Below are positions 1 to 62,673 of a stretch of DNA of 64,000 bases, piece after piece. The translations under genes and the position numbers were made by a program. The notes under the pieces are model-generated. The model was not told the origin of the DNA and ran no database searches. It saw nothing but the letters and a program-made list of their open reading frames with translations. Position 1 is the first letter of the stretch. Every line of letters starts with the position of its first letter. The stretch comes from Eledone cirrhosa. Lineage: Eukaryota. The stretch is taken from contig OZ024740.1 of assembly GCA_964016885.1 (NCBI GenBank), positions 164,114,001 through 164,178,000 of the forward strand, given 5' to 3'.

Positions 1-403
1 AACTTCTAGAGATCTCTGGCCTGGCAGTGCTACCGAGGAGCTCTACCAGTTCGAGATAAAATCTACAGACATGGACGCCCTGGCAGAGATCCTGCCAAAA
101 GAATCTATCCAAGATGCGAGCAGGACATTGAAACCGTCCTGCACGATCAGTGCCCAGGGGTGTCCGACCTGTGGAATTATGTCGAACAGCTACTGTCACG
201 TGTTGGACGCATCCAGTTGTCAGCCGAGTCCATCGTGAATATCACGCCGCCGCCTTCATTTAAGAATGAAGGAGAGGCGGTTTTCCTCTGTCCGCTGGCT
301 ATGGCGAAAGAGGTAATATGGTGGACGAGATTAAAAGGACTGAGGGCAAACACCTTTCTCTCCGGGCAACAACTCATCCCCTTTTTTAAGTATCACTTCA
401 GAA
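1..403 (+). mobile_element. Tx1/L1-clade LINE, 3' ORF2 fragment (zinc-finger/C-terminal region)
   Basis: Paralogous to ~1470-1820 (DLWNY.EQLLSRVG.IQL.AESI...FKNEGEAVF in both ORFs); cut by the window edge. Confidence 0.75.
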
Positions 404-2168
404 GACCATTTTGTAGATTGATTTCCCCGTCTGAATTGTCAGCGAGTGGGTCATCGCATTTTTGCGACCATCAATACTTGGAAGTGGTTCTCAAGGCGGC
501 CTGCTTCGGTCCCGTCTTCAGAGGCTGTATCACAGCCATGCATACCAACATCTGCTCGACAGTGAAGGTGAACGGCTACCTATCGGAGCCGTTCCGAATC
601 ATGCGTTCCACCCGACAGGGATGCCCTCTCTCCTCCATTCTTACGTGTTGACTCTAGAGCCACTACTGCGGAAGTTGGAGCTTTTGCAGGGATCCCTTTG
701 GAACCGGGACTGCGAAAAGTGGCGTCGGCTTATGCCGACGACATGACAGTAATAGTGTAGAAAACCTCGGAAATCGGGGCGAACGGCAACTTACTTAAGG
801 AACACGAAAAGCTTACAGGAGCAAAACTCAACCCGGACAAGTCTGTCGGTTTGCAACTCGGGACGAGGAGAGGCAAACTGATGCCGTCCAACAGTGTCGT
901 CGGACGCTGTACGGAAGGACCGGCGAAATTGTTCGGGGTCTGGTTTGGTCCGGACCTCCAGGTGGAGAAAAAACTGGAACGAAGTCACGGCCAAGGTATT
1001 TGTGCACCCCAGAAGTGGGCAGAGTGCAAACTATCCTTGAAAGGTCGAGCGGAGGTGGCGAACACTTTCATAGCGTCCGTCATCTACTACCGCTTGACAG
1101 TCGTGCCTTGTCCCCGTGAATACCTCACCAAAATGTAACGCATACGCTTCCAATTTCTTTGGAAGAAGCAGGATCCACTGGTGAGGAGATCCGTCTGCTG
1201 CCAGCACCCTTCCAATGGAGGCTGGGAATGCCGTGGCTGATGATGCGCAAATACGCTCTGAGGCTACGGCATCTGCAGGTATTCCTCACCAATCAACCGG
1301 TGTGAGACAAGCCTTTCCGCAACTTATCTCGCTGACGGAGCTGCAGTCCTGGGACAAGCAGAGACCGAAGAAAATGGGCGCCTGTCATAATGAATGCGCT
1401 CAGGCGCTCACAGTCCTCTGTCAAGCGGGCACAGCAATCAGTGGAGACTCCACTTCGTCATTCTATGGTCCCTGGCCTGGCAGTGCTACCGAGGAGCTCT
1501 ACCAGCACGCGATAACATCTACAGGCACGGACGCCCCGGCAGGTATCCTTCAAAGTGGACGTGTCCAAGATGCGAGCGTAACCGACCTGTGGAACTACGC
1601 AGAACAACTGCTGTCGCGTGTGGGACAAATCCAGTTGACTGCCGAGTCCATATTAATGATCAAACCGTCACTTTCATTTAAAAACGAAGGAGAGGCGGTT
1701 TTCGTCTGTATGGTGGTTATGGTGAAGAGGTTATATGGTGGACAAGATTGAGAAGACTGAGGACTGATGCCTTTCTCTCCGGACAACACCTCATTCCCTT
1801 CTTTAGATACCACTTTAGAAGGAGAATCAGAGTGGAGCGAGCGGTACTGCGCCCCAGTAAATTTACTGAAAGATGGATGAATGTGGCGAGAAAGGCCCGA
1901 GTGATTGGGCCTTCTTTGCATATAAATATGTAGGTTGAAGAATAGAGCGAAAAGGAGAAAGGAGCATTTGCACAACATTCTCCTGTAGTTGAGGGTTCTT
2001 CTATCTACGGGGTATAAAACAACCCATTTATAACGCCTCCTCCCTATTGGAGTTTTAGATCGTTATATTTTAATGTTAAATTTTTTTTACACGACTGTAT
2101 GTAAAATCCCGCCATATGTCTTGGTATTGTACCCTTTTCTTGTGCGCCCTTGTGGCAAATAAAGAAAT
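404..2168 (+). mobile_element. Tx1/L1-clade LINE, decayed RT domain to 3' UTR
   Basis: Frameshifted RT motifs VKVNGYLSEPF..RSTRQGCPLS, SAYADDM (~726-746), KLFGVWFG, LSLKGRAEVANTFIASVIYYRL. AATAAA at 2158-2163, then a simple-repeat tail. Confidence 0.85.
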
Positions 2169-7128: not shown

Positions 7129-7183
7129 ACTGCCTGAAGAGGTCACAGCCAAAGATGGCTGTCACCGAAATATATATAGCAGT
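7129..7183 (+). ncRNA. Type I hammerhead ribozyme (minimal)
   Basis: ACTGC-CTGAAGA-GGTCACAGCC aaagat GGCTGTCACC-GAAA-tatata-TA-GCAGT. Stem I 5 bp, stem II 9/10 bp, palindromic stem III, intact core. Confidence 0.8.
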
Positions 7184-8021: not shown

Positions 8022-8993
8022 TTGGGTAATACAAAATATCTGAAAACCTAATCTATGTTTTGACCTGCTCAGGTTGTCAAGAGCACTACATAGGACAGAC
8101 AAAAAACAGCCTCCGTCAACGTATGACTGTCCATAAATCACAAATTAAAATACAGGAGTACAAAAAGATTGCATTTAGTGAACATATCGACAATTGTGCA
8201 CACAATCAACATCCAAACTTTAAATTTTTCCCCATTTACAAATTCATAGACAACGCTACCTTCATCCATCGTACCAATAAGGAAACATATTTCATTAACA
8301 AATTCCAACCTCTACTTAATGCACTAAAAATCGGACCAAACTAAAACTGCAACAAACAATCAAACATTTACAAGAGTTACCTACCTCACACCCTACCTAA
8401 TCCTTTTTCTTAAATAAATTAAATATCATCCAGAAAGAATTGCTTCCCGCTGCATATTAACTCTCTAAAAAGGGAAATCATATCAAACCTCAGTCCACCA
8501 TTTGCCTCCATCATGGAATCATGGATCAACTAAGCACTCTTGCTATATTAACACATTTTAATTTGTTTAACTTCAAGAACTATGTCTGTAAATAACATTA
8601 TTTTTTCTTTCACATTGACTTTTTATGCTCTACATTACGTCCGTTTTTTTTTCTTTTTTCTTTTTTCTTTTCACTTCATAAACCTTGTTTGTAAATAACA
8701 TTATTCTTTCTGCACCTTCTCTTTAACATGTGCGACACCACACTAATACATATCACTATCATTTGATAATGCATAAAAATGCTGAAACCGGTAATAGACA
8801 ATTATTAAATATATAAAAAGATAAATAAATGCCATTGTTAAATAATAAATAAATCAACTAATACCTTAACACTTCACCCAAAGTAAAACATTTCGTTTTA
8901 ATCATTTTCTAACCCAGAAAAAAGAGAGAGAGAAATAAAAAAGGAAAAAAATATATTTTTCTTCCTAATAATCGTCTCTTTCTCCCTGTTTTC

Positions 8994-11153: not shown

Positions 11154-11396
11154 AAAAATACAATAATTACATCTAACTTATCATTTTAAGCATAACTAGG
11201 CGAAATCAAAACGAGTAATTATTTAAACAAATTAATTTTCTAGAACTCCTTCGTCGTCTTTAAACGACACACAGAGGAACATTTTAGCCCAGATTGAGCT
11301 GAGACTGTGCAAGCTGACAACACAATCGTCCATAACATAGCATAGATACCCGCACTAATTTCTTGAAACCTACGGTTTGATGTTAATTGTCTTGGT

Positions 11397-11454
<58 letters not shown>

Positions 11455-11697
11455 ACCAAGACAATTAACATCAAACCGTAGGTTTCAAGAAATTAGTGCG
11501 GGTATCTATGCTATGTTATGGACGATTGTGTTGTCAGCTTGCACAGTCTCAGCTCAATCTGGGCTAAAATGTTCCTCTGTGTGTCGTTTAAAGACGACGA
11601 AGGAGTTCTAGAAAATTAATTTGTTTAAATAATTACTCGTTTTGATTTCGCCTAGTTATGCTTAAAATGATAAGTTAGATGTAATTATTGTATTTTT
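11154..11697. repeat. Near-perfect palindrome, ~250-bp arms centred on a (TA)n tract
   Basis: 11154-11403 is the reverse complement of 11448-11697; mirror ORFs 11240-11464(-) and 11387-11611(+). Confidence 0.95.
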
Positions 11698-14044: not shown

Positions 14045-15697
14045 CAAGTTTACCAAGTTTAGAAATAATACCTTAGCGTCGGGAAATTTTGTAAATCAAA
14101 TTGAATACGGAATGAAACGAAACAACCACACTGTTACATAAAGTAAAAAGACCAATTTACAACTAGCAATAGCTATAAAGCCCAGTTTCCTAACCTGGGA
14201 GATTTCAACTGTTGGGTGGTCGTTAACCTTTTTTCTCGGACATGAATTAGACAAGGGAAGACCAATAGCAACTTTACCAGTAAAATTAAGAAGTGACTTC
14301 AGGATAAAGACACCAACGTCGTCAGCACCGAGAGATCACTTATAAAATTCTCATATGATGACTTCTAAGAACTCTGACAACAGGCCGGTGACAAGGAGGC
14401 ACCGACGACAATTCTAGAAAAAATATGAGAATCCCAAGATGGAACTTGTTCTAAGTTAAATGCGCACGCTCATATAAGCAGACAGACATGTGCAGTTGTT
14501 GGATTTACTGATTGCACACTCTTGAAATCTCGTATTTGAAAATGGACTTGGTGAACGAAACTTTTGATATCCATTGTTGCTGCTACTTTCTCTGTTTGTT
14601 ACGATTTTTCAACACTCCAATGTCTCAATTGAAGAACATTTGTTATTGGTTTATCACTTCTCATCAGAGAATTTTCCATACAAATTGTCGAAGCGACAGT
14701 TGTGGGAATCAATGATTAACGAGGGTTTATGTTCATTTAAAAAAAAATGAAAATATTCAACCTTGTGAGGAGATGCAGTTCACTGATCAGTTGTTACTTG
14801 ATTCAAAATGTTAGATTTATTGAAGCTATTTTTTAATGAACATAACATCTCAATGAACAATATTGTTGGCTGTGCTTCTGATGGAGCACCTACTTTGGCA
14901 GGGGGATACAGAGTTTTCTCTTCTCTCTTAAAACTTGAATTTTCGCATCTCGTTTTAACAGTTCACTGTATTGCTCACCGGCAGCATTTAATGGCAACAA
15001 ATACCAACGTCAGGCTTATTGATATATTGCAGTTAGTTAGGGAAACTGTGAACAAACTAAAATCGAATTCTTTGTCTAAACGAATTTTCCGAAGCTTTTG
15101 TACCATACTGAATTGTGATTGTTGTCAAAAGGCAACTGTGTTGTCCATTTTGTCGAAATGTCCGATACAATAATTCTTTTTTTCAAAATACTTCAGTATC
15201 TACTTCTCTGATTGTTTCAAAATGTGATATTTCTTTCCTTAGCGACATATTCGCCAAACTAAATGATCTCACAAAACGCTTGTCGAATGTAAATCGTCCA
15301 TCACTGCCTTCATTTATAAATTAATGTTATATAATATTTCAAGACGTCAACTTCACCAGTTTCAACCGTTGGATAGCTTGAAAGATGAATTAATTGAAGA
15401 GAATGCTATTGCATGTCGTAATTATTTGCAATCATTGCTTGAAGACATTGCATAGCGATTTTAGGATATTATCGTATTATTTGTTCCAGGTGGATATAAC
15501 AACTCACTTGAAGTCCAAGTGATCGATCGCGAAGACGATGTGCAGGAAGAATTGATAGATTTACAAATGACAATGATGACACATCGGCTTCATGGTAAAC
15601 ATTGCTTCTGGTATCATCAAAGTATAGTGACATCGTATCCCAATCAAACAAAGTTTAATAAAATGCAGTTTGACTTCATTATTTCTTTCCTATTTAA

Positions 15698-17690
<1,993 letters not shown>

Positions 17691-34940: not shown

Positions 34941-35032
<92 letters not shown>

Positions 35033-35033
35033 G

Positions 35034-35064
<31 letters not shown>

Positions 35065-35279
35065 GTTAAGAATGTACATCCACATATGTATACTGAAATA
35101 CTAGTATGCATATGAATACACACACGTGTACATATGTAGATGTACCGAGTTTTTCACTGGTCACTTTACTGTGAGTGTCCAGCTATTCTGTATGTAAACA
35201 CACAGACAAACCGGTTTTTAGAGTCATACTGGTTTTTGAGGAAACACCTTTCCTCTATTCTCCAGAAAGCCAGACAAGG

Positions 35280-35324
35280 AATATTGGACTAGTTTCGATG
35301 TTGTTACATCTCATCAGCAATATT
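35280..35324 (-). ncRNA. Minimal type I hammerhead ribozyme, copy 1 (further minus-strand copies at 35746-35790, 36212-36256, 36678-36722, 37144-37188, 37610-37654, 38076-38120)
   Basis: Minus strand AATATTG-CTGATGA-GATGT aaca ACATC-GAAA-CTAG-TC-CAATATT. Stem I 7 bp, stem II 5 bp, palindromic ACTAGT stem III, GUC cleavage triplet. Confidence 0.93.
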
Positions 35325-38300
35325 TACCCATCTTCCGGCCTTTCTAGAGAATCGTAAAAGCACATATCGTTATATGCTTTTTCTATGAAAATTAGTAGTG
35401 GGCAGACTAATTTGCATAGAGCGTGAGTACGTACCGGTTCAACGGAGACGATAAAAACAAATAACGAAACGAAATTAAATTTTGTTTCGTTTGTAACTCA
35501 CTTTTGTATGACTGACGCTTAAACAATTAAGTTAAGAATGTACATCCACATATGTATACTGAAATACTAGTATGCATATGAATACACACACGTGTACATA
35601 TGTAGATGTACCGAGTTTTTCACTGGTCACTTTACTGTGAGTGTCCAGCTATTCTGTATGTAAACACACAGACAACCCGGTTTTTAGAGTCATACTGGTT
35701 TTTGAGGAAACACCTTTCCTCTATTCTCCAGAAAGCCAGACAAGGAATATTGGACTAGTTTCGATGTTGTTACATCTCATCAGCAATATTTACCCATCTT
35801 CCGGCCTTTCTAGAGAATCGTAAAAGCACATATCGTTATATGCTTTTTCTATGAAAATTAGTAGTGGGCAGACTAATTTGCATAGAGCGTGAGTACGTAC
35901 CGGTTCAACGGAGACGATAAAAACAAATAACGAAACGAAATTAAATTTTGTTTCGTTTGTAACTCACTTTTGTATGACTGACGCTTAAACAATTAAGTTA
36001 AGAATGTACATCCACATATGTATACTGAAATACTAGTATGCATATGAATACACACACGTGTACATATGTAGATGTACCGAGTTTTTCACTGGTCACTTTA
36101 CTGTGAGTGTCCAGCTATTCTGTATGTAAACACACAGACAAACCGGTTTTTAGAGTCATACTGGTTTTTGAGGAAACACCTTTCCTCTATTCTCCAGAAA
36201 GCCAGACAAGGAATATTGGACTAGTTTCGATGTTGTTACATCTCATCAGCAATATTTACCCATCTTCCGGCCTTTCTAGAGAATCGTAAAAGCACATATC
36301 GTTATATGCTTTTTCTATGAAAATTAGTAGTGGGCAGACTAATTTGCATAGAGCGTGAGTACGTACCGGTTCAACGGAGACGATAAAAACAAATAACGAA
36401 ACGAAATTAAATTTTGTTTCGTTTGTAACTCACTTTTGTATGACTGACGCTTAAACAATTAAGTTAAGAATGTACATCCACATATGTATACTGAAATACT
36501 AGTATGCATATGAATACACACACGTGTACATATGTAGATGTACCGAGTTTTTCACTGGTCACTTTACTGTGAGTGTCCAGCTATTCTGTATGTAAACACA
36601 CAGACAAACCGGTTTTTAGAGTCATACTGGTTTTTGAGGAAACACCTTTCCTCTATTCTCCAGAAAGCCAGACAAGGAATATTGGACTAGTTTCGATGTT
36701 GTTACATCTCATCAGCAATATTTACCCATCTTCCGGCCTTTCTAGAGAATCGTAAAAGTACATATCGTTATATGCTTTTTCTATGAAAATTAGTAGTGGG
36801 CAGACTAATTTGCATAGAGCGTGAGTACGTACCGGTTCAACGGAGACGATAAAAACAAATAACGAAACGAAATTAAATTTTGTTTCGTTTGTAACTCACT
36901 TTTGTATGACTGACGCTTAAACAATTAAGTTAAGAATGCACATCCACATATGTATACTGAAATACTAGTATGCATATGAATACACACACGTGTACATATG
37001 TAGATGTACCGAGTTTTTCACTGGTCACTTTACTGTGAGTGTCCAGCTATTCTGTATGTAAACACACAGACAAACCGGTTTTTAGAGTCATACTGGTTTT
37101 TGAGGAAACACCTTTCCTCTATTCTCCAGAAAGCCAGACAAGGAATATTGGACTAGTTTCGATGTTGTTACATCTCATCAGCAATATTTACCCATCTTCC
37201 GGCCTTTCTAGAGAATCGTAAAAGCACATATCGTTATATGCTTTTTCTATGAAAATTAGTAGTGGGCAGACTAATTTGCATAGAGCGTGAGTACGTACCG
37301 GTTCAACGGAGACGATAAAAACAAATAACGAAACGAAATTAAATTTTGTTTCGTTTGTAACTCACTTTTGTATGACTGACGCTTAAACAATTAAGTTAAG
37401 AATGCACATCCACATATGTATACTGAAATACTAGTATGCATATGAATACACACACGTGTACATATGTAGATGTACCGAGTTTTTCACTGGTCACTTTACT
37501 GTGAGTGTCCAGCTATTCTGTATGTAAACACACAGACAAACCGGTTTTTAGAGTCATACTGGTTTTTGAGGAAACACCTTTCCTCTATTCTCCAGAAAGC
37601 CAGACAAGGAATATTGGACTAGTTTCGATGTTGTTACATCTCATCAGCAATATTTACCCATCTTCCGGCCTTTCTAGAGAATCGTAAAAGCACATATCGT
37701 TATATGCTTTTTCTATGAAAATTAGTAGTGGGCAGACTAATTTGCATAGAGCGTGAGTACGTACCGGTTCAACGGAGACGATAAAAACAAATAACGAAAC
37801 GAAATTAAATTTTGTTTCGTTTGTAACTCACTTTTGTATGACTGACGCTTAAACAATTAAGTTAAGAATGTACATCCACATATGTATACTGAAATACTAG
37901 TATGCATATGAATACACACACGTGTACATATGTAGATGTACCGAGTTTTTCACTGGTCACTTTACTGTGAGTGTCCAGCTATTCTGTATGTAAACACACA
38001 GACAAACCGGTTTTTAGAGTCATACTGGTTTTTGAGGAAACACCTTTCCTCTATTCTCCAGAAAGCCAGACAAGGAATATTGGACTAGTTTCGATGTTGT
38101 TACATCTCATCAGCAATATTTACCCATCTTCCGGCCTTTCTAGAGAATCGTAAAAGCACATATCGTTATATGCTTTTTCTATGAAAATTAGTAGTGGGCA
38201 GACTAATTTGCATAGAGCGTGAGTACGTCATACAAAAGTGAGTTACAAACGAAACAAAATTTAATTTCGTTTCGTTATTTGTTTTTATCGTCTCCGTTGA

Positions 38301-38571
38301 ACCGGTACGTACTCACGCTCTATGCAAATTAGTCTGCCCACTACTAATTTTCATAGAAAAAGCATATAACGATATGTGCGTCAGTCATACAAAAGTGAGT
38401 TACAAACGAAACAAAATTTAATTTCGTTTCGTTATTTGTTTTTATCGTCTCCGTTGAACCGGTACGTACTCACGCTCTATGCAAATTAGTCTGCCCACTA
38501 CTAATTTTCATAGAAAAAGCATATAACGATATGTGCTTTTACGATTCTCTAGAAAGGCCGGAAGATGGGTA

Positions 38572-38616
38572 AATATTGCTGATGAGATGTAACAACATCG
38601 AAACTAGTCCAATATT
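38572..38616 (+). ncRNA. Minimal type I hammerhead ribozyme, inverted copy 8
   Basis: aatattgCTGATGAgatgtaacaacatcGAAActagTCcaatatt; predicted cleavage after 38609. Confidence 0.93.
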
Positions 38617-39037
38617 CCTTGTCTGGCTTTCTGGAGAATAGAGGAAAGGTGTTTCCTCAAAAACCAGTATGACTCTAAAAACCGGTTTGTCTGTGTGTTT
38701 ACATACAGAATAGCTGGACACTCACAGTAAAGTGACCAGTGAAAAACTCGGTACATCTACATATGTACACGTGTGTGTATTCATATGCATACTAGTATTT
38801 CAGTATACATATGTGGATGTACATTCTTAACTTAATTGTTTAAGCGTCAGTCATACAAAAGTGAGTTACAAACGAAACAAAATTTAATTTCGTTTCGTTA
38901 TTTGTTTTTATCGTCTCCGTTGAACCGGTACGTACTCACGCTCTATGCAAATTAGTCTGCCCACTACTAATTTTCATAGAAAAAGCATATAACGATATGT
39001 GCTTTTACGATTCTCTAGAAAGGCCGGAAGATGGGTA

Positions 39038-39082
39038 AATATTGCTGATGAGATGTAACAACATCGAAACTAGTCCAATATT
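39038..39082 (+). ncRNA. Minimal type I hammerhead ribozyme, inverted copy 9
   Basis: Identical to 38572-38616, 466 bp downstream. Confidence 0.93.
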
Positions 39083-39370
39083 CCTTGTCTGGCTTTCTGG
39101 AGAATAGAGGAAAGGTGTTTCCTCAAAAACCAGTATGACTCTAAAAACCGGTTTGTCTGTGTGTTTACATACAGAATAGCTGGACACTCACAGTAAAGTG
39201 ACCAGTGAAAAACTCGGTACATCTACATATGTACACGTGTGTGTATTCATATGCATACTAGTATTTCAGTATACATATGTGGATGTACATTCTTAACTTA
39301 ATTGTTTAAGCGTCAGTCATACAAAAGTGAGTTACAAACGAAACAAAATTTAATTTCGTTTCGTTATTTG

Positions 39371-39413
<43 letters not shown>

Positions 39414-47110: not shown

Positions 47111-47190
<80 letters not shown>

Positions 47191-47195
<5 letters not shown>

Positions 47196-47695
47196 GAAGT
47201 TAATATGCCCGTGGGTACTAAGTACCCCTGGAAATATATAGGTTGTCTATGATTTAAGGTTGTTCTATGGTATTAATTTGACATACCAGAACTATCATAT
47301 TAAGATAAGCAGAACAAGCAAAATTCAACCAATTTTTTAAAATAAATTAAAAAATATAATTTAAATATTTACCTATTCTTTTGGCCCTTACCGATCGGTT
47401 TCGCTTTGTAAAACACCAGAAATCCAATGGATTTCTAATGGAAAATCAAAGCTCATCAGAGAAGCATTTTCCTTTCCTAGGGCTAAAGACCCAGGAACGA
47501 TAAAATATATTGTTATCTGCCAGCTAGCACAGATCCAAAAGGCCGAAAAATGACGCGTACGTGAACTGCCCGAGGTGAAAGCGGGAAAAGCATAGACGTG
47601 TTGTCTATCTCGTTACTAAAAATAGCAGCTAAATAGAAACAACAGATTTGTTCTCAACATAACAGAGAATAATAGAAGAAGTTAATATGCCCGTG

Positions 47696-47699
<4 letters not shown>
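47191..47699 (-). mobile_element. Retrozyme-like monomer: 482-bp period with 27-bp terminal redundancy, between (TA)n tracts
   Basis: tagaagaagttaatatgcccgtgggta at 47191 and 47673; internal hammerhead. Confidence 0.8.
47384..47465 (-). ncRNA. Type I hammerhead ribozyme with extended stem II
   Basis: Minus strand gcttct-CTGATGA-GCTTTG..CATTAGAAATCC att GGATTTCTGGTG..CAAAGC-GAAA-CCGATCGG-TA-agggc. Palindromic ACCGATCGGT stem III; stem I is weak (G-U rich). Confidence 0.78.
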
Positions 47700-48124: not shown

Positions 48125-50692
<2,568 letters not shown>

Positions 50693-52512: not shown

Positions 52513-52543
52513 CTGATGAGATCTAATAACATCGAAACATGTC
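52513..52543 (+). ncRNA. Hammerhead core relic resembling the 466-bp array hammerhead
   Basis: CTGATGA-GAT ctaataac ATC-GAAA-CATG-TC; palindromic ACATGT stem III; no stem I found. Confidence 0.55.
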
Positions 52544-52821: not shown

Positions 52822-52865
52822 ATCGTAGATGCATTTCGAACTCAACTGGTTCTCCTCATGACGAT
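52822..52865 (-). ncRNA. Degenerate type I hammerhead motif
   Basis: Minus strand ATCGT-c-ATGAGGA-GAAC cagttga GTTC-GAAA-TGCA-TC-t-ACGAT; palindromic ATGCAT stem III; C3 altered. Confidence 0.55.
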
Positions 52866-59532: not shown

Positions 59533-60324
59533 TATTAAATAAAATGTATTTCTCTTTTTAACATAACGGGGGGGGGGGGTGATTTAAACGAGATTTGGCT
59601 GCTATTTCTAACCTTTGGAGTGATAAGTAGGAATTTCTCGGAGTAAGGTCAAATATTGTTTTTAGAAAATATTATTAATGCTTGAACCAACCATTGTTAA
59701 AGAAAATGAAATGTTTTCCCTTGCCAAAACTCAGAACGTTCCTGTTTCTATAAGTATTCACAAATTGATTACAGAATTCATATTATCCGCTTTCAATTTT
59801 ACAAATATGCAATCCTAAATCTAAACGAATACAATTTTTATATATGTGCTCCTGTGTATATTCATTTTTATAATGGTAGACTTCCGGCACTTCTGTGGCT
59901 CCTCAACTAGAAATAGAAACTAATTCTCAAATCAAATTCCTATCACTTAGAATAAAGAAGGATATGATATAGTGGACAATGTAGTCCTCGAAATACACAA
60001 GATGGATTTTGCTGTGGAGAAATGCGTAGAAATGATCAGTGAGAGCAATGTTGAATTCCGTGGGATTGATACTAGTGAGCTGGGACTCCTACTTAAACTT
60101 ACTTATAGTAATAACTATCTAGATACATACGACCTTAGCAACCTGTGCCCTACAAGACCAGCAAGAGGCAGACCACCTACCATTACCTCAATGGCTAAGA
60201 AAACCCACACAGATAGATGCAACGGGTGGACCAGAGCAATACGGACCCCCGAAAACCACGATGAACTAAAGAAAATGATTGCACATGCGGTGGGGCCAGT
60301 ATAAAATTAACCCTTAAGGAACAT

Positions 60325-61629
60325 ATGTTCAAATTTAATGGAAAAACATATGCCCAAGAGGAGGGAGCAGCCATTGGTGTTAGCATTGCAGGTGACATAG
60401 CTAACCTATTCATGGTATGGTGGGACAATAGACTTAAACTTAAATTTAAAGAACAATTAGAAGACAGCAACCTCTTAACCCTGATAATGTACTTCCGCTA
60501 CGTTGATGATATAAACATCGTAGTAAAAACACACCCACTAGAGAACAGTCAGGAATTAGAGAAAAACACCATGGAAAGCATCCAGAAAATAGCTAACTCC
60601 ATCCACCAGAGTATTAGAGTTACTATAGACTACCCAAGCAAACACCCCAACCATCGATTACCTGTACTAGACACAGAGCTCTGGTTAGATACTATCAATA
60701 ACAAACAACAGATCCTCCATTCCCATTATGCCAAACCCATGACTTCCAAATACCTGATCCACCGAAACTCAGCTGTTCCGGACCACACCCAAATCAACAT
60801 ACTGATTGCGGATTTGGTACGGGTGATGAGAAACGTGTCCCGCATGTGCCACCCCAAAGAACTAGAGAGACACATACAACACTTCATCCACCGTATGCAG
60901 TTCTCTGGCTACAATCAGAGAGATAAGATCAGAGTATATAGAGGAGCCAGAACCAAATGGGAAAAAATGGTAAATAATGATACAAATGGGACCTGCCCCT
61001 TGTACAGGAGCACATTTTGGAATAGAATAGAAAGAACTAGGAATAAAGTTCATAGAATAAACTCATGGTATGATAGCAATAAATACCAGAGTGTTATGTT
61101 CATCAATACAACCTCTAGAGGCGAATTAGCTTACAAATTCAGAAGGGCCCTAGATAAACATAAACTCAATATTAAGATAGTAGAAAGACCAGGTACCTCC
61201 ATAAAAACACTTATTAGCAATACATACCCTTTTCAAAGACCTCCCTGTATAGATAAGAAATGTATAATCTGTAAATTAAGCCCCCATATTAACTGTAAAA
61301 CTAGAAATGTAGTATATAGCATAAGATGTACTGAAGGACAATGTAGAGATAAGAATATAGTGTACATAGGTGAGACAGCTCGTAGTATAGGAGAACGGAT
61401 AAATGAACACTGGCGAGAGCTTCAAGATAGTAAAGAATCATCTGTACTCTACCAACATGCTAAAATAGAACATAAGGGTAAATTACAGAACATAGAAATG
61501 AAAATAGAGTCTACACACAGAAAAGACGCAATGTTTAGACAAATCACAGAGGCAATAAACATAAATGAACTACAACCAAAATTAAATAGAAAGCATGAAT
61601 GGAATAGCAACATCACAACTTATAATTAA
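60325..61629 (+). CDS. PLE reverse transcriptase + GIY-YIG endonuclease, C-terminal 434 aa (upstream part in ORF 59972-60304, frameshift near 60300)
   Basis: FKFNGKTYAQEEGAAIG, YFRYVDDI, LPVLD, linker CIDKKCIIC, NVVYSIRC...VYIGETARSIGERINEH, RQITEAINI...PKLN. Confidence 0.9.
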   Translation: MFKFNGKTYAQEEGAAIGVSIAGDIANLFMVWWDNRLKLKFKEQLEDSNLLTLIMYFRYVDDINIVVKTHPLENSQELEKNTMESIQKIANSIHQSIRVTIDYPSKHPNHRLPVLDTELWLDTINNKQQILHSHYAKPMTSKYLIHRNSAVPDHTQINILIADLVRVMRNVSRMCHPKELERHIQHFIHRMQFSGYNQRDKIRVYRGARTKWEKMVNNDTNGTCPLYRSTFWNRIERTRNKVHRINSWYDSNKYQSVMFINTTSRGELAYKFRRALDKHKLNIKIVERPGTSIKTLISNTYPFQRPPCIDKKCIICKLSPHINCKTRNVVYSIRCTEGQCRDKNIVYIGETARSIGERINEHWRELQDSKESSVLYQHAKIEHKGKLQNIEMKIESTHRKDAMFRQITEAININELQPKLNRKHEWNSNITTYN

Positions 61630-61828: not shown

Positions 61829-61871
61829 GTCACTGAAGAGGTCACAGAATTTGTGACGAAAGAACTTTGAC
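61829..61871 (+). ncRNA. PLE pseudo-LTR hammerhead ribozyme (minimal type I)
   Basis: GTCA-CTGAAGA-g-GTCACA gaatt TGTGAC-GAAA-gaac-TT-TGAC; the sister copy at ~46285 has TA at the cleavage site. Confidence 0.8.
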
Positions 61872-62015
61872 AATATATGAACAATCGTCTGGTTGTGGAA
61901 CCAACCAACCGGAAATTTATAAATTTAATTTATAATAAATTGAAGTGAAAGCAACTGGTGCGTGTGTTTCTTATTGGCAACATGACCCTCCCAAAGTATA
62001 ACAATATATATATAT

Positions 62016-62673
62016 GGAGCCGCAGCTCCATTATTATCATATTTACACATATATTTTTTCCTCCGCTGCCACCAGTCTGTTTCGTTCTTTGTGTCTTTAC
62101 CATTTCTAGCAGTCTCTCTCTCTCTCTGTTAGTTTCTGCCTCACCTTTCACTCACTCACTCTCTGTCACTACCTCTCCTCCTCCCCTTTCTTCCCGTTTG
62201 ATCTGTCCGTAATCCTTTTCTCGCGGGCACTTGGCCAAGCCGGTATGAATTTTTTTTCTCTCTCTCTCGTCTGCGACTTCACAGAACTTATGTTTACCGA
62301 ATTCGCAGACCAGACCCCTTCTTCCTCCCGTTAGACCTGTGCGAAATTCCTTCCTTGCTCACATTTCAACCAGGTTTGATGGTCTTTATTCTCTCGTTCA
62401 CGATTCCACTGAATTTATATTCATAGAAATCTGGGACTTGTTTCTTTCTTCTCATCACTTTCTGTTGCTTAAACCATTTTGTTTGTTTACCCTAGCGTCC
62501 CCCTTATTTACGTGTCCCAACGAATTTTTTTAGCCGTTGCTCGCACCAACCTGAGGTATATGGCCTTTAATGCGACGAAATGCCTACGACGGTTGGAAGG
62601 CCACTGATGAGGACAAACTTTTTCATATGTAACCCATTTGCAGCGCCGCAGCTCCATTATTATCATATTTACA
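62016..62673 (+). mobile_element. Non-coding terminally redundant element (626-bp period, 29-bp direct repeat) between TA tracts
   Basis: gccgcagctccattattatcatatttaca at 62019 and 62645; 3' part homologous to 12125-12262. Confidence 0.7.

Follow-up and report, generated by a model that had tools for sequence, protein, structure and literature searches.

Why should a hammerhead ribozyme whose stem III is a single base pair be laid out in tandem? In the 64,000-nucleotide stretch of DNA analysed here (the window), which derives from a microsatellite-rich animal genome of 36% G+C, a 466-bp unit carrying such a ribozyme recurs in two arms that meet head to head. A preliminary description had proposed that the self-complementary sequence at stem III leads to cleavage as a double hammerhead, and that this mode of cleavage explains the tandem format. 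We considered the two parts of this proposal separately, drawing on the available portions of the papers cited below by identifier. The array is made up of the following features.

35059 to 39377, both arms: array, very probably of a retrozyme, with nine hammerheads in two arms head to head; 466-bp unit, 36% G+C
34942 to 35059, unstranded: (TA)n tract taking the 3′ end of the left arm
35059 to 38228, minus strand: left arm, 6.8 units, starting at unit position 321 and ending at 228 (numbering begins at the cut site)
38113, 37647, 37181, 36715, 36249, 35783 and 35317, minus strand: starts of the seven hammerhead cores of the left arm
38227 to 38379, plus strand: 153-bp extra piece (unit positions 241 to 393), with a 2-nt overlap at each joint
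38378 to 39377, plus strand: right arm, 2.1 units with two hammerheads, from unit position 235 to 302
39375 to 39413, unstranded: (TA)n tract taking the 3′ end of the right arm, with a TAT overlap

A scan for core and stems placed seven of the array hammerheads on the minus strand and two on the plus strand. Seven units are complete from cut to cut, four of them identical and three with one or two base differences, and one substitution is common to two adjacent copies. At each outer end of the array, the 3′ end of the ribozyme strand runs into (TA)n; when a target-site duplication was looked for, both ends were found to lie inside these tracts. None of the six segment ends (unit positions 321, 228, 241, 393, 235 and 302) coincides with the cut site, and the 153-bp piece would appear to be the product of a template switch. 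The longest stop-free stretch of the unit in six frames is 60 codons, no open reading frame of at least 120 amino acids in the list for the window overlaps the array, the segment map of the array contains no LTR-type layout, and no antisense hammerhead core was found within the unit. As a circle, the 466-nt RNA is predicted to be 66% paired, at −148.5 kcal/mol. Elsewhere in the window, two long near-perfect inverted repeats, at 11154–11697 (272-nt arms centred on (TA)n) and 15123–16201 (226-nt arms, 627 nt apart), are possibly further two-arm insertions.

These properties are those of metazoan non-LTR retrozymes, which are described as short, non-coding tandem units with a G+C content below 50% (PMC7229834; 10.64898/2026.07.22.740005) and as having one canonical type I hammerhead per unit, a highly self-paired predicted circle and a Penelope-like element in the same genome, as there is in this window (PMC7229834). 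The size of the unit is just above the range of 150–450 bp given in one of the papers (PMC7229834) and inside the 51–972 bp given in the other (10.64898/2026.07.22.740005), and a circular RNA of the array unit is predicted. We consider it very probable that this unit represents a non-LTR retrozyme of non-autonomous type. The parts of its ribozyme, on the plus strand, are as follows.

38544 to 38639, plus strand: first plus-strand hammerhead, type I, with an extended stem I of 28 bp with internal loops
38544 to 38578 and 38610 to 38639, plus strand: 5′ and 3′ strands of its stem I, predicted at −32 kcal/mol
38579 to 38609, plus strand: catalytic core, stem II, GAAA and GUC site, with the predicted cut at 38609/38610
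38586 to 38599, 38600 to 38603, 38604 to 38607, 38608 and 38609, plus strand: stem II, GAAA, loop CTAG, U16.1 and C17 of this core
38603 to 38608, plus strand: stem III, one A-U pair closing the CUAG loop; self-complementary hexamer with a homoduplex at −4.8 kcal/mol
39045 to 39075, plus strand: second core, identical to the first, 466 nt downstream

The preliminary description was accurate in giving stem III as only A-CTAG-T, with ACTAGT self-complementary, in the plus-strand cores at 38579 and 39045. The type I core (CUGANGA, GAAA and an N-U-H site) is present, stems I and II form, and the open end lies in stem I. All nine copies aligned over the full length of the Rfam model Hammerhead_HH9 (RF02275), with an E-value of 2.6e-08 on a 201-nt stretch. 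On this model the geometry is canonical, with a 6-bp stem I, an internal loop, a 4-bp stem II and a 6-nt loop II; loops I and II match it in geometry and, in part, in their residues, and five model positions of stem III and its loop are missing in the array. Judged by its sequence, the array hammerhead appears to work like HH9 but is not a member of it, its score of 37.3 bits falling short of the gathering score (52). Rfam microRNA matches, all below the gathering score, were discarded as microsatellite artefacts.

To which of the known classes does this ribozyme belong? The preliminary description had likened it to minimal hammerheads, and this likeness does not hold, in that the array type is canonical, with its long and stable stem I. 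The minimal hammerheads of Penelope elements resemble it in their type I topology, very short helix III and proposed cleavage as dimers (PMC4209133). That class, however, has a helix I of 4–5 bp, a helix II of 7–8 bp and an extra base after position 9, whereas the array has a helix I of 28 bp, a helix II of 4–5 bp and no extra base; moreover, the Penelope hammerheads lie in a pseudo-LTR beside an open reading frame for a reverse transcriptase (RT)-endonuclease, unlike the array unit, which has no such frame. Three other features of the window enter into this comparison.

47190 to 47699, minus strand: single-unit hammerhead element unrelated to the array, flanked by (TA)n tracts; 482 bp with a further 28 bp of terminal redundancy; core at 47459
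60265 to 61629, plus strand: reading frame for a Penelope-like RT with GIY-YIG, 454 amino acids from stop to stop
61829 to 61880, plus strand: minimal Penelope-type hammerhead (core 61833), 204 nt behind the Penelope-like frame, with a 4-bp stem I, an extra base after the core, a long stem II and a GAAC loop

The hammerhead at 61833 has the dimensions of the Penelope minimal class, but its loop is non-palindromic. The array, with its 1-bp helix III, palindromic tetraloop and neighbour on the same strand, has instead the layout of the double-hammerhead class. Newt satellite 2 hammerheads were reportedly the subject of work by Forster et al. in 1988. Together with the axolotl HHR_Amex1, they are described as having the same 1-bp helix III and palindromic tetraloop, tandem units and a type I layout (PMC7229834). 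Such an amphibian-type helix III would be mildly unusual if the host is an invertebrate, as its composition suggests, most invertebrate motifs having a stable helix III and most invertebrate type I hammerheads cleaving well as monomers (PMC7761336). For metazoan type I hammerheads in general, a helix III of 1–2 bp, a palindromic loop and dimers in tandem repeats are given as the majority pattern (PMC4209133), and the idea of a palindromic loop acting in a dimer is repeated in two further papers (PMC6765202; PMC6466107). Because the mechanism is already stated in the available text of PMC4209133 and PMC7229834, a confirmation here adds one further example.

Could two neighbouring units of the array fold in this way? 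The double hammerhead predicted for two adjacent units is fully nested, with the strands of stem I exchanged and the hexamers paired. Its calculated energy is −210.3 kcal/mol, compared with −200.0 kcal/mol for two forced single hammerheads, −211.8 kcal/mol with stem III left open and −214.8 kcal/mol without constraints; that is, the double form lies 10.3 kcal/mol below the two forced singles, whereas the local fold with stem III open is lower than it by 1.5 kcal/mol and the misfold by 4.5 kcal/mol. With palindrome-breaking loops the double form ranged from −196.7 to −205.2 kcal/mol and with four other palindromes from −210.1 to −213.8 kcal/mol, as the model dictates by construction. In the lowest-energy fold predicted for the circle, AGU of the loop is paired with GCU at the start of the core, which is an inactive form. 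Because tertiary contacts and kinetics lie outside the model, and the long stem I would form locally first, during transcription, the double form is to be taken as showing feasibility only. The monomer of HHR_Amex1, with its one base pair and palindromic tetraloop, reaches 6% cleavage in an hour, and its dimer cleaves far better (PMC7229834); eight of nine Xenopus dimer elements gave no cleavage in vitro (10.64898/2026.07.22.740005). With the axolotl ribozyme as the best guide, we think it rather likely that a dimer of the array unit would cleave clearly faster than a monomer, and somewhat doubtful that a dimer would be strictly required.

Are palindromes at this position more frequent than chance would allow? 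The five other palindromes named in the preliminary description are all present at or near the positions given for them, but only the hammerheads at 7134 (plus) and 47459 (minus) are intact, in the sense that the scan accepted their cores and both of their stems I and II. The latter has a stem III of 3 bp and a GATC loop. The core at 8763 has two mismatches, that at 52859 (minus) has one, and at 52513 the core is intact and stem I is absent; since the core at 52513 is related to that of the array, with 24 of 26 positions identical, it is not an independent case. The list was also selective, in that it did not cite 7725, where ATATGTAT can self-pair only via G·U, or 61833 (plus) and 29144 (minus), both of which have the non-self-complementary AGAACT (duplex +1.4 kcal/mol). 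These two have a common GAAC loop and different stems II, and stem I of 29144 is poor.

An unbiased scan of the window, with the array collapsed to one unit, gave eight matches in which the core was perfect and stem II had 3 bp or more, against a mean of 0.8 in 20 resampled sequences. A palindrome followed GAAA in four of these eight, as against 36 of 992 GAAA sites (P ~1e-4), and the preliminary expectation that loop III palindromes exceed chance is thus borne out among the hammerheads of the window. When only the inner two pairs, which are specific to the dimer, were counted, the proportion was 4/7 (P = 8e-4; 27665 was dropped, as it has no U-H site), and with 52513 merged into the array family it was 3/6 (P = 0.007). 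Allowing one mismatch gave 5 palindromic loops in 18 matches, and none in eight resampled sequences averaging 7.9 matches; with two mismatches, the 99 matches compared with about 75 in resampled sequence. Four two-mismatch sites of the core and stem scan, three of them without a palindrome, were taken as noise. Three sites may be recorded here in their own right: at 16891 (plus), a degenerate hammerhead-like site with one core mismatch, not cited in the preliminary description, is followed by ACTAGT; 7134 (plus) and 61833 (plus) have 15 identical bases over the core and the start of stem II and different loops III (TATATA and GAAC); and at 62604 (plus) there is a further CTGATGA, with GAAA about 25 nt upstream, in which we saw no complete hammerhead by eye.

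A metagenome scan that put no constraint on the loop found 46 matches, at 43 loci. Where stem I had at least 3 bp and stem II was paired, 9 of 12 loops were palindromic, compared with 1 of the 34 others; the 3-bp threshold was chosen after the matches had been viewed, and at a 4-bp threshold the figures were 5/7 and 5/39. By eye, the nine palindromic matches comprise three sequence families, with the loops CGCG, CGCG and GCGC, and because these families are unrelated to the 466-bp unit, they support the general rule only. No relative of the unit was found among the 43 metagenome loci beyond a core match of 26 nt, nor was any found among 19 viral-contig loci. Two of the metagenome contigs, L025 (601–1483, minus) and L059 (601–986, minus), have three and two hammerhead-like cores, 357–443 nt apart, which are apparently of type III, as judged from a match between upstream sequence and the bases that follow GAAA.

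Is it then the palindromic property, rather than the sequence, that selection keeps, as the preliminary description supposed? We compared the array with sequencing runs, 4 of the 24 listed, of which X1, X24 and X10 had reads and X22 yielded none; the runs are of DNA or of unrecorded kind. The unit occurred in 1041 X1 contigs and 3423 X24 reads, a depth that does not amount to a copy number. In X1 and X24 the family is seen to be mobile and repeated many times in the genome, with subfamily variants and with (TA)n junctions at three unit positions. The A-U pair of stem II at 38587/38598 is swapped to U-A, the two changes occurring in 174 of 598 and 156 of 570 X24 reads and in 33% and 35% of the contig depth in X1; given these matching frequencies, the two changes appear to be linked in both runs. 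Both are present on the sole contig covering the site in X10, which bears a different organism label. At the cut site, the majority base is U (GUU; 344 of 535 X24 reads and 81% of X1 depth), so that GUC in the window is the minority allele, and with GUU the palindrome is lengthened to 8 nt (−6.6 versus −4.8 kcal/mol).

No compensatory change in loop III was present among the variants listed (40 of 84), and counts of the kinds of change in X1 excluded five of the six possible single-pair swaps in the loop at 3%, leaving C>T with G>A. The sole loop III change among the variants listed is an uncompensated A>G at 38606 in 182 of 534 X24 reads, which is absent from X1 and yields a CUGG loop that still self-pairs via G·U (−3.2 kcal/mol). 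Thus the idea holds between families (CTAG versus CATG at 52513, and CGCG and GCGC in the metagenome) but was not seen within the reads of this family, where, without compensatory change in the loop, it is the sequence that was seen to be kept; the non-palindromic GAAC loop common to the two Penelope-type cores also stands against it. Over the whole circle, 8 of 11 changes at paired sites keep the pair, where 54% would be expected (P = 0.17), in a test using 21 of the 40 listed variants, from which those found only in X24 and a few minor ones were excluded.

Each hammerhead of the same retrozyme might instead cut alone, with stem I and contacts between loops I and II sufficing for the single A-U pair, and the palindrome acting as a helper or persisting as an inherited trait. 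The canonical HH9 geometry and the strength of the local stem I favour this, as do the coral and mussel hammerheads, whose monomers have cleavage rates of 0.8 and 0.1 per min, respectively (PMC7229834). The uncompensated A>G in the loop in X24 points the same way, although CUGG retains its G·U pairing. Extended newt hammerheads cleave as single hammerheads, and a literature search on single versus double cleavage in newt, which left most subscription journals uncovered, found no paper on the matter. However, HHR_Amex1 also combines tertiary contacts with a 1-bp helix III, yet is slow as a monomer (PMC7229834), and palindromes are enriched both in the window and in the metagenome matches with a stem I. 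Taking these points together, we regard cutting by each hammerhead alone as unlikely, and retain dimer-aided cutting.

The loop change in X24 has a counterpart in the remainder of the unit. In this run, which is RAD-seq DNA, A>G changes occur at 31 places on the ribozyme strand and T>C changes at 11, and the 5′ neighbour is U or A in 14 of the 15 listed A>G sites, compared with 96 of the 148 A's of the unit. ADAR enzymes have a neighbour preference, and the A>G context in X24 is ADAR-like. At 38677–38681, all five A's of a cluster are changed in about 113 reads that share one start, whereas 70 reads with three starts carry a second cluster, at 38729–38731; these clusters are absent from X1 or present there in trace amounts. 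It is conceivable, though improbable, that the array represents an invertebrate retrozyme with an amphibian-type, dimer-dependent hammerhead, the RNA of which is subject to A-to-I editing before it is copied into the genome. In that case, clusters of A>G substitutions, affecting among others the A in the loop CUAG, would be expected on the ribozyme strand of part of the genomic copies, which would constitute a DNA record of RNA editing by which the dimer helix is weakened. Against this, several of the A>G sites are supported by reads that all begin at one position, and X1 has neither the loop change nor a bias (8 versus 5, P = 0.42). The clusters are possibly a sequencing or library artefact.

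How, then, might the tandem array have arisen? On balance, we favor an explanation in which a retrozyme is cut with the aid of dimers and the array is made by copying of the circle. Read-through transcription would yield a multimeric RNA, in which a lone hammerhead, as in a monomer or circle, would cut slowly owing to its single stem III pair and its tendency to misfold through AGU and GCU. Two units could trade stem I strands, which are identical between them, and base-pair through ACUAGU, forming a shared 6-bp stem III and cutting faster. The excised 466-nt monomer would be ligated into a circle, and an RT-endonuclease of the Penelope type would prime at a (TA)n tract and copy this circle for several rounds, and it would be this copying, rather than the dimer fold, that gives rise to the tandem format. 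The head-to-head arms would result from priming from both sides of one break, combined with a template switch. LINE-1 twin priming is an analogue for such priming from both sides. In the literature searched, which left most subscription journals uncovered, we found neither two-ended priming by retrozymes nor edited retrozyme copies in genomic DNA.

Mobilisation of the unit by a Penelope-type enzyme is, in our view, probable. Head-to-head arms with their 3′ ends in (TA)n fit Penelope-type integration, and tandem and inverted insertions and the targeting of microsatellites are described for Penelope-like elements (10.1101/2021.04.23.441226). The frame at 60265–61629 had no match in Pfam at E 0.001 (RVT_1 was below the cut-off, with E 0.0015) and its sole PDB match was a distant RT; Atlas placed it, at 0.95–0.98, with clusters of HTH_animal, GIY-YIG and RVT_1. 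By eye, it has a CX4CXXC motif ahead of the nuclease, as in Neptune- and Nematis-like elements (10.1101/2021.04.23.441226), and it would encode an enzyme of the kind expected to mobilise a retrozyme. A comparison of the 466-bp unit with the Penelope 3′ region of the window gave no sequence similarity (best E 0.07). Among the other repeats of the window are a dispersed repeat of about 194 bp, SINE-like in appearance, which is present as a dimer at 49395–49794 and has copies near 16227, 17500 and 20476, and broken frames at 10–1751 (plus) that by eye resemble a non-LTR retrotransposon reverse transcriptase.

The second part of the preliminary proposal, that dimer cleavage explains the tandem format, has not survived in our analysis. 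In its strong form, cleavage would need two adjacent units and selection for this would be the reason for the tandem element. Two copies do lie 466 nt apart on the same strand, and reviews suggest that a tandem layout might help Penelope hammerheads to dimerise (PMC6765202; PMC6466107). Retrozymes that are competent as monomers nevertheless also occur in arrays, mussel retrozymes being tandem and those of corals reaching up to 62 units (PMC7229834), and since monomer-cleaving retrozymes are tandem too, the format is better explained by the copying of circular RNA, in agreement with the published model of tandem cDNA made by reverse transcription on a circle (PMC7229834). The excision of any unit-length RNA takes two cut sites, whatever the fold, and the segment ends are out of phase with the cut site, which indicates that a circular or multimeric template was copied. 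Furthermore, the palindrome-bearing element at 47190–47699 is a single unit, as would result if a circle had been copied for slightly more than one round. We therefore hold the strong form to be quite improbable. Least probable of all is growth of the array at the DNA level, by unequal crossover or fold-back replication with the hammerhead as a passenger, or an inversion that is an assembly artefact: the units are near-identical, two neighbours have a substitution in common, local amplification has been proposed for retrozyme satellites (10.64898/2026.07.22.740005) and the central head-to-head inversion is not among the read joints listed, but stem II covaries in the reads, the centre is a 153-bp piece with 2-nt overlaps and not a clean fold-back, and each arm meets (TA)n at its outer end, which is the 3′ end of the ribozyme strand, at junction positions that recur in X1 (12 contigs at the unit position of the right end and two at that of the left end), although X1 possibly represents the sample from which the window itself derives.

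With its 466-bp unit, the element very probably constitutes a new family of non-LTR retrozymes; no earlier description of it was found in the literature searched, although it or related families may be listed in Lunse et al. 2017 or in supplements. Mildly unusual are its two-arm insertion and the A>G clusters of X24, the latter of which we treat as a lead only. Should these clusters prove to be genomic, they would document directly that the RNA intermediate had been edited. In the available text of the two retrozyme papers, a head-to-head two-arm insertion into (TA)n is not described (PMC7229834; 10.64898/2026.07.22.740005). Because the array is young, is found with GUC and GUU alleles and combines a helix III of 1 bp with a stem I of 28 bp, the locus offers a clean test of whether double hammerheads form when a long helix must be exchanged. 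Penelope-type mobilisation of retrozymes has been proposed earlier from co-occurrence and phylogeny (PMC7229834; 10.64898/2026.07.22.740005), and the two-arm insertion into (TA)n now provides support for it at the level of a single locus.
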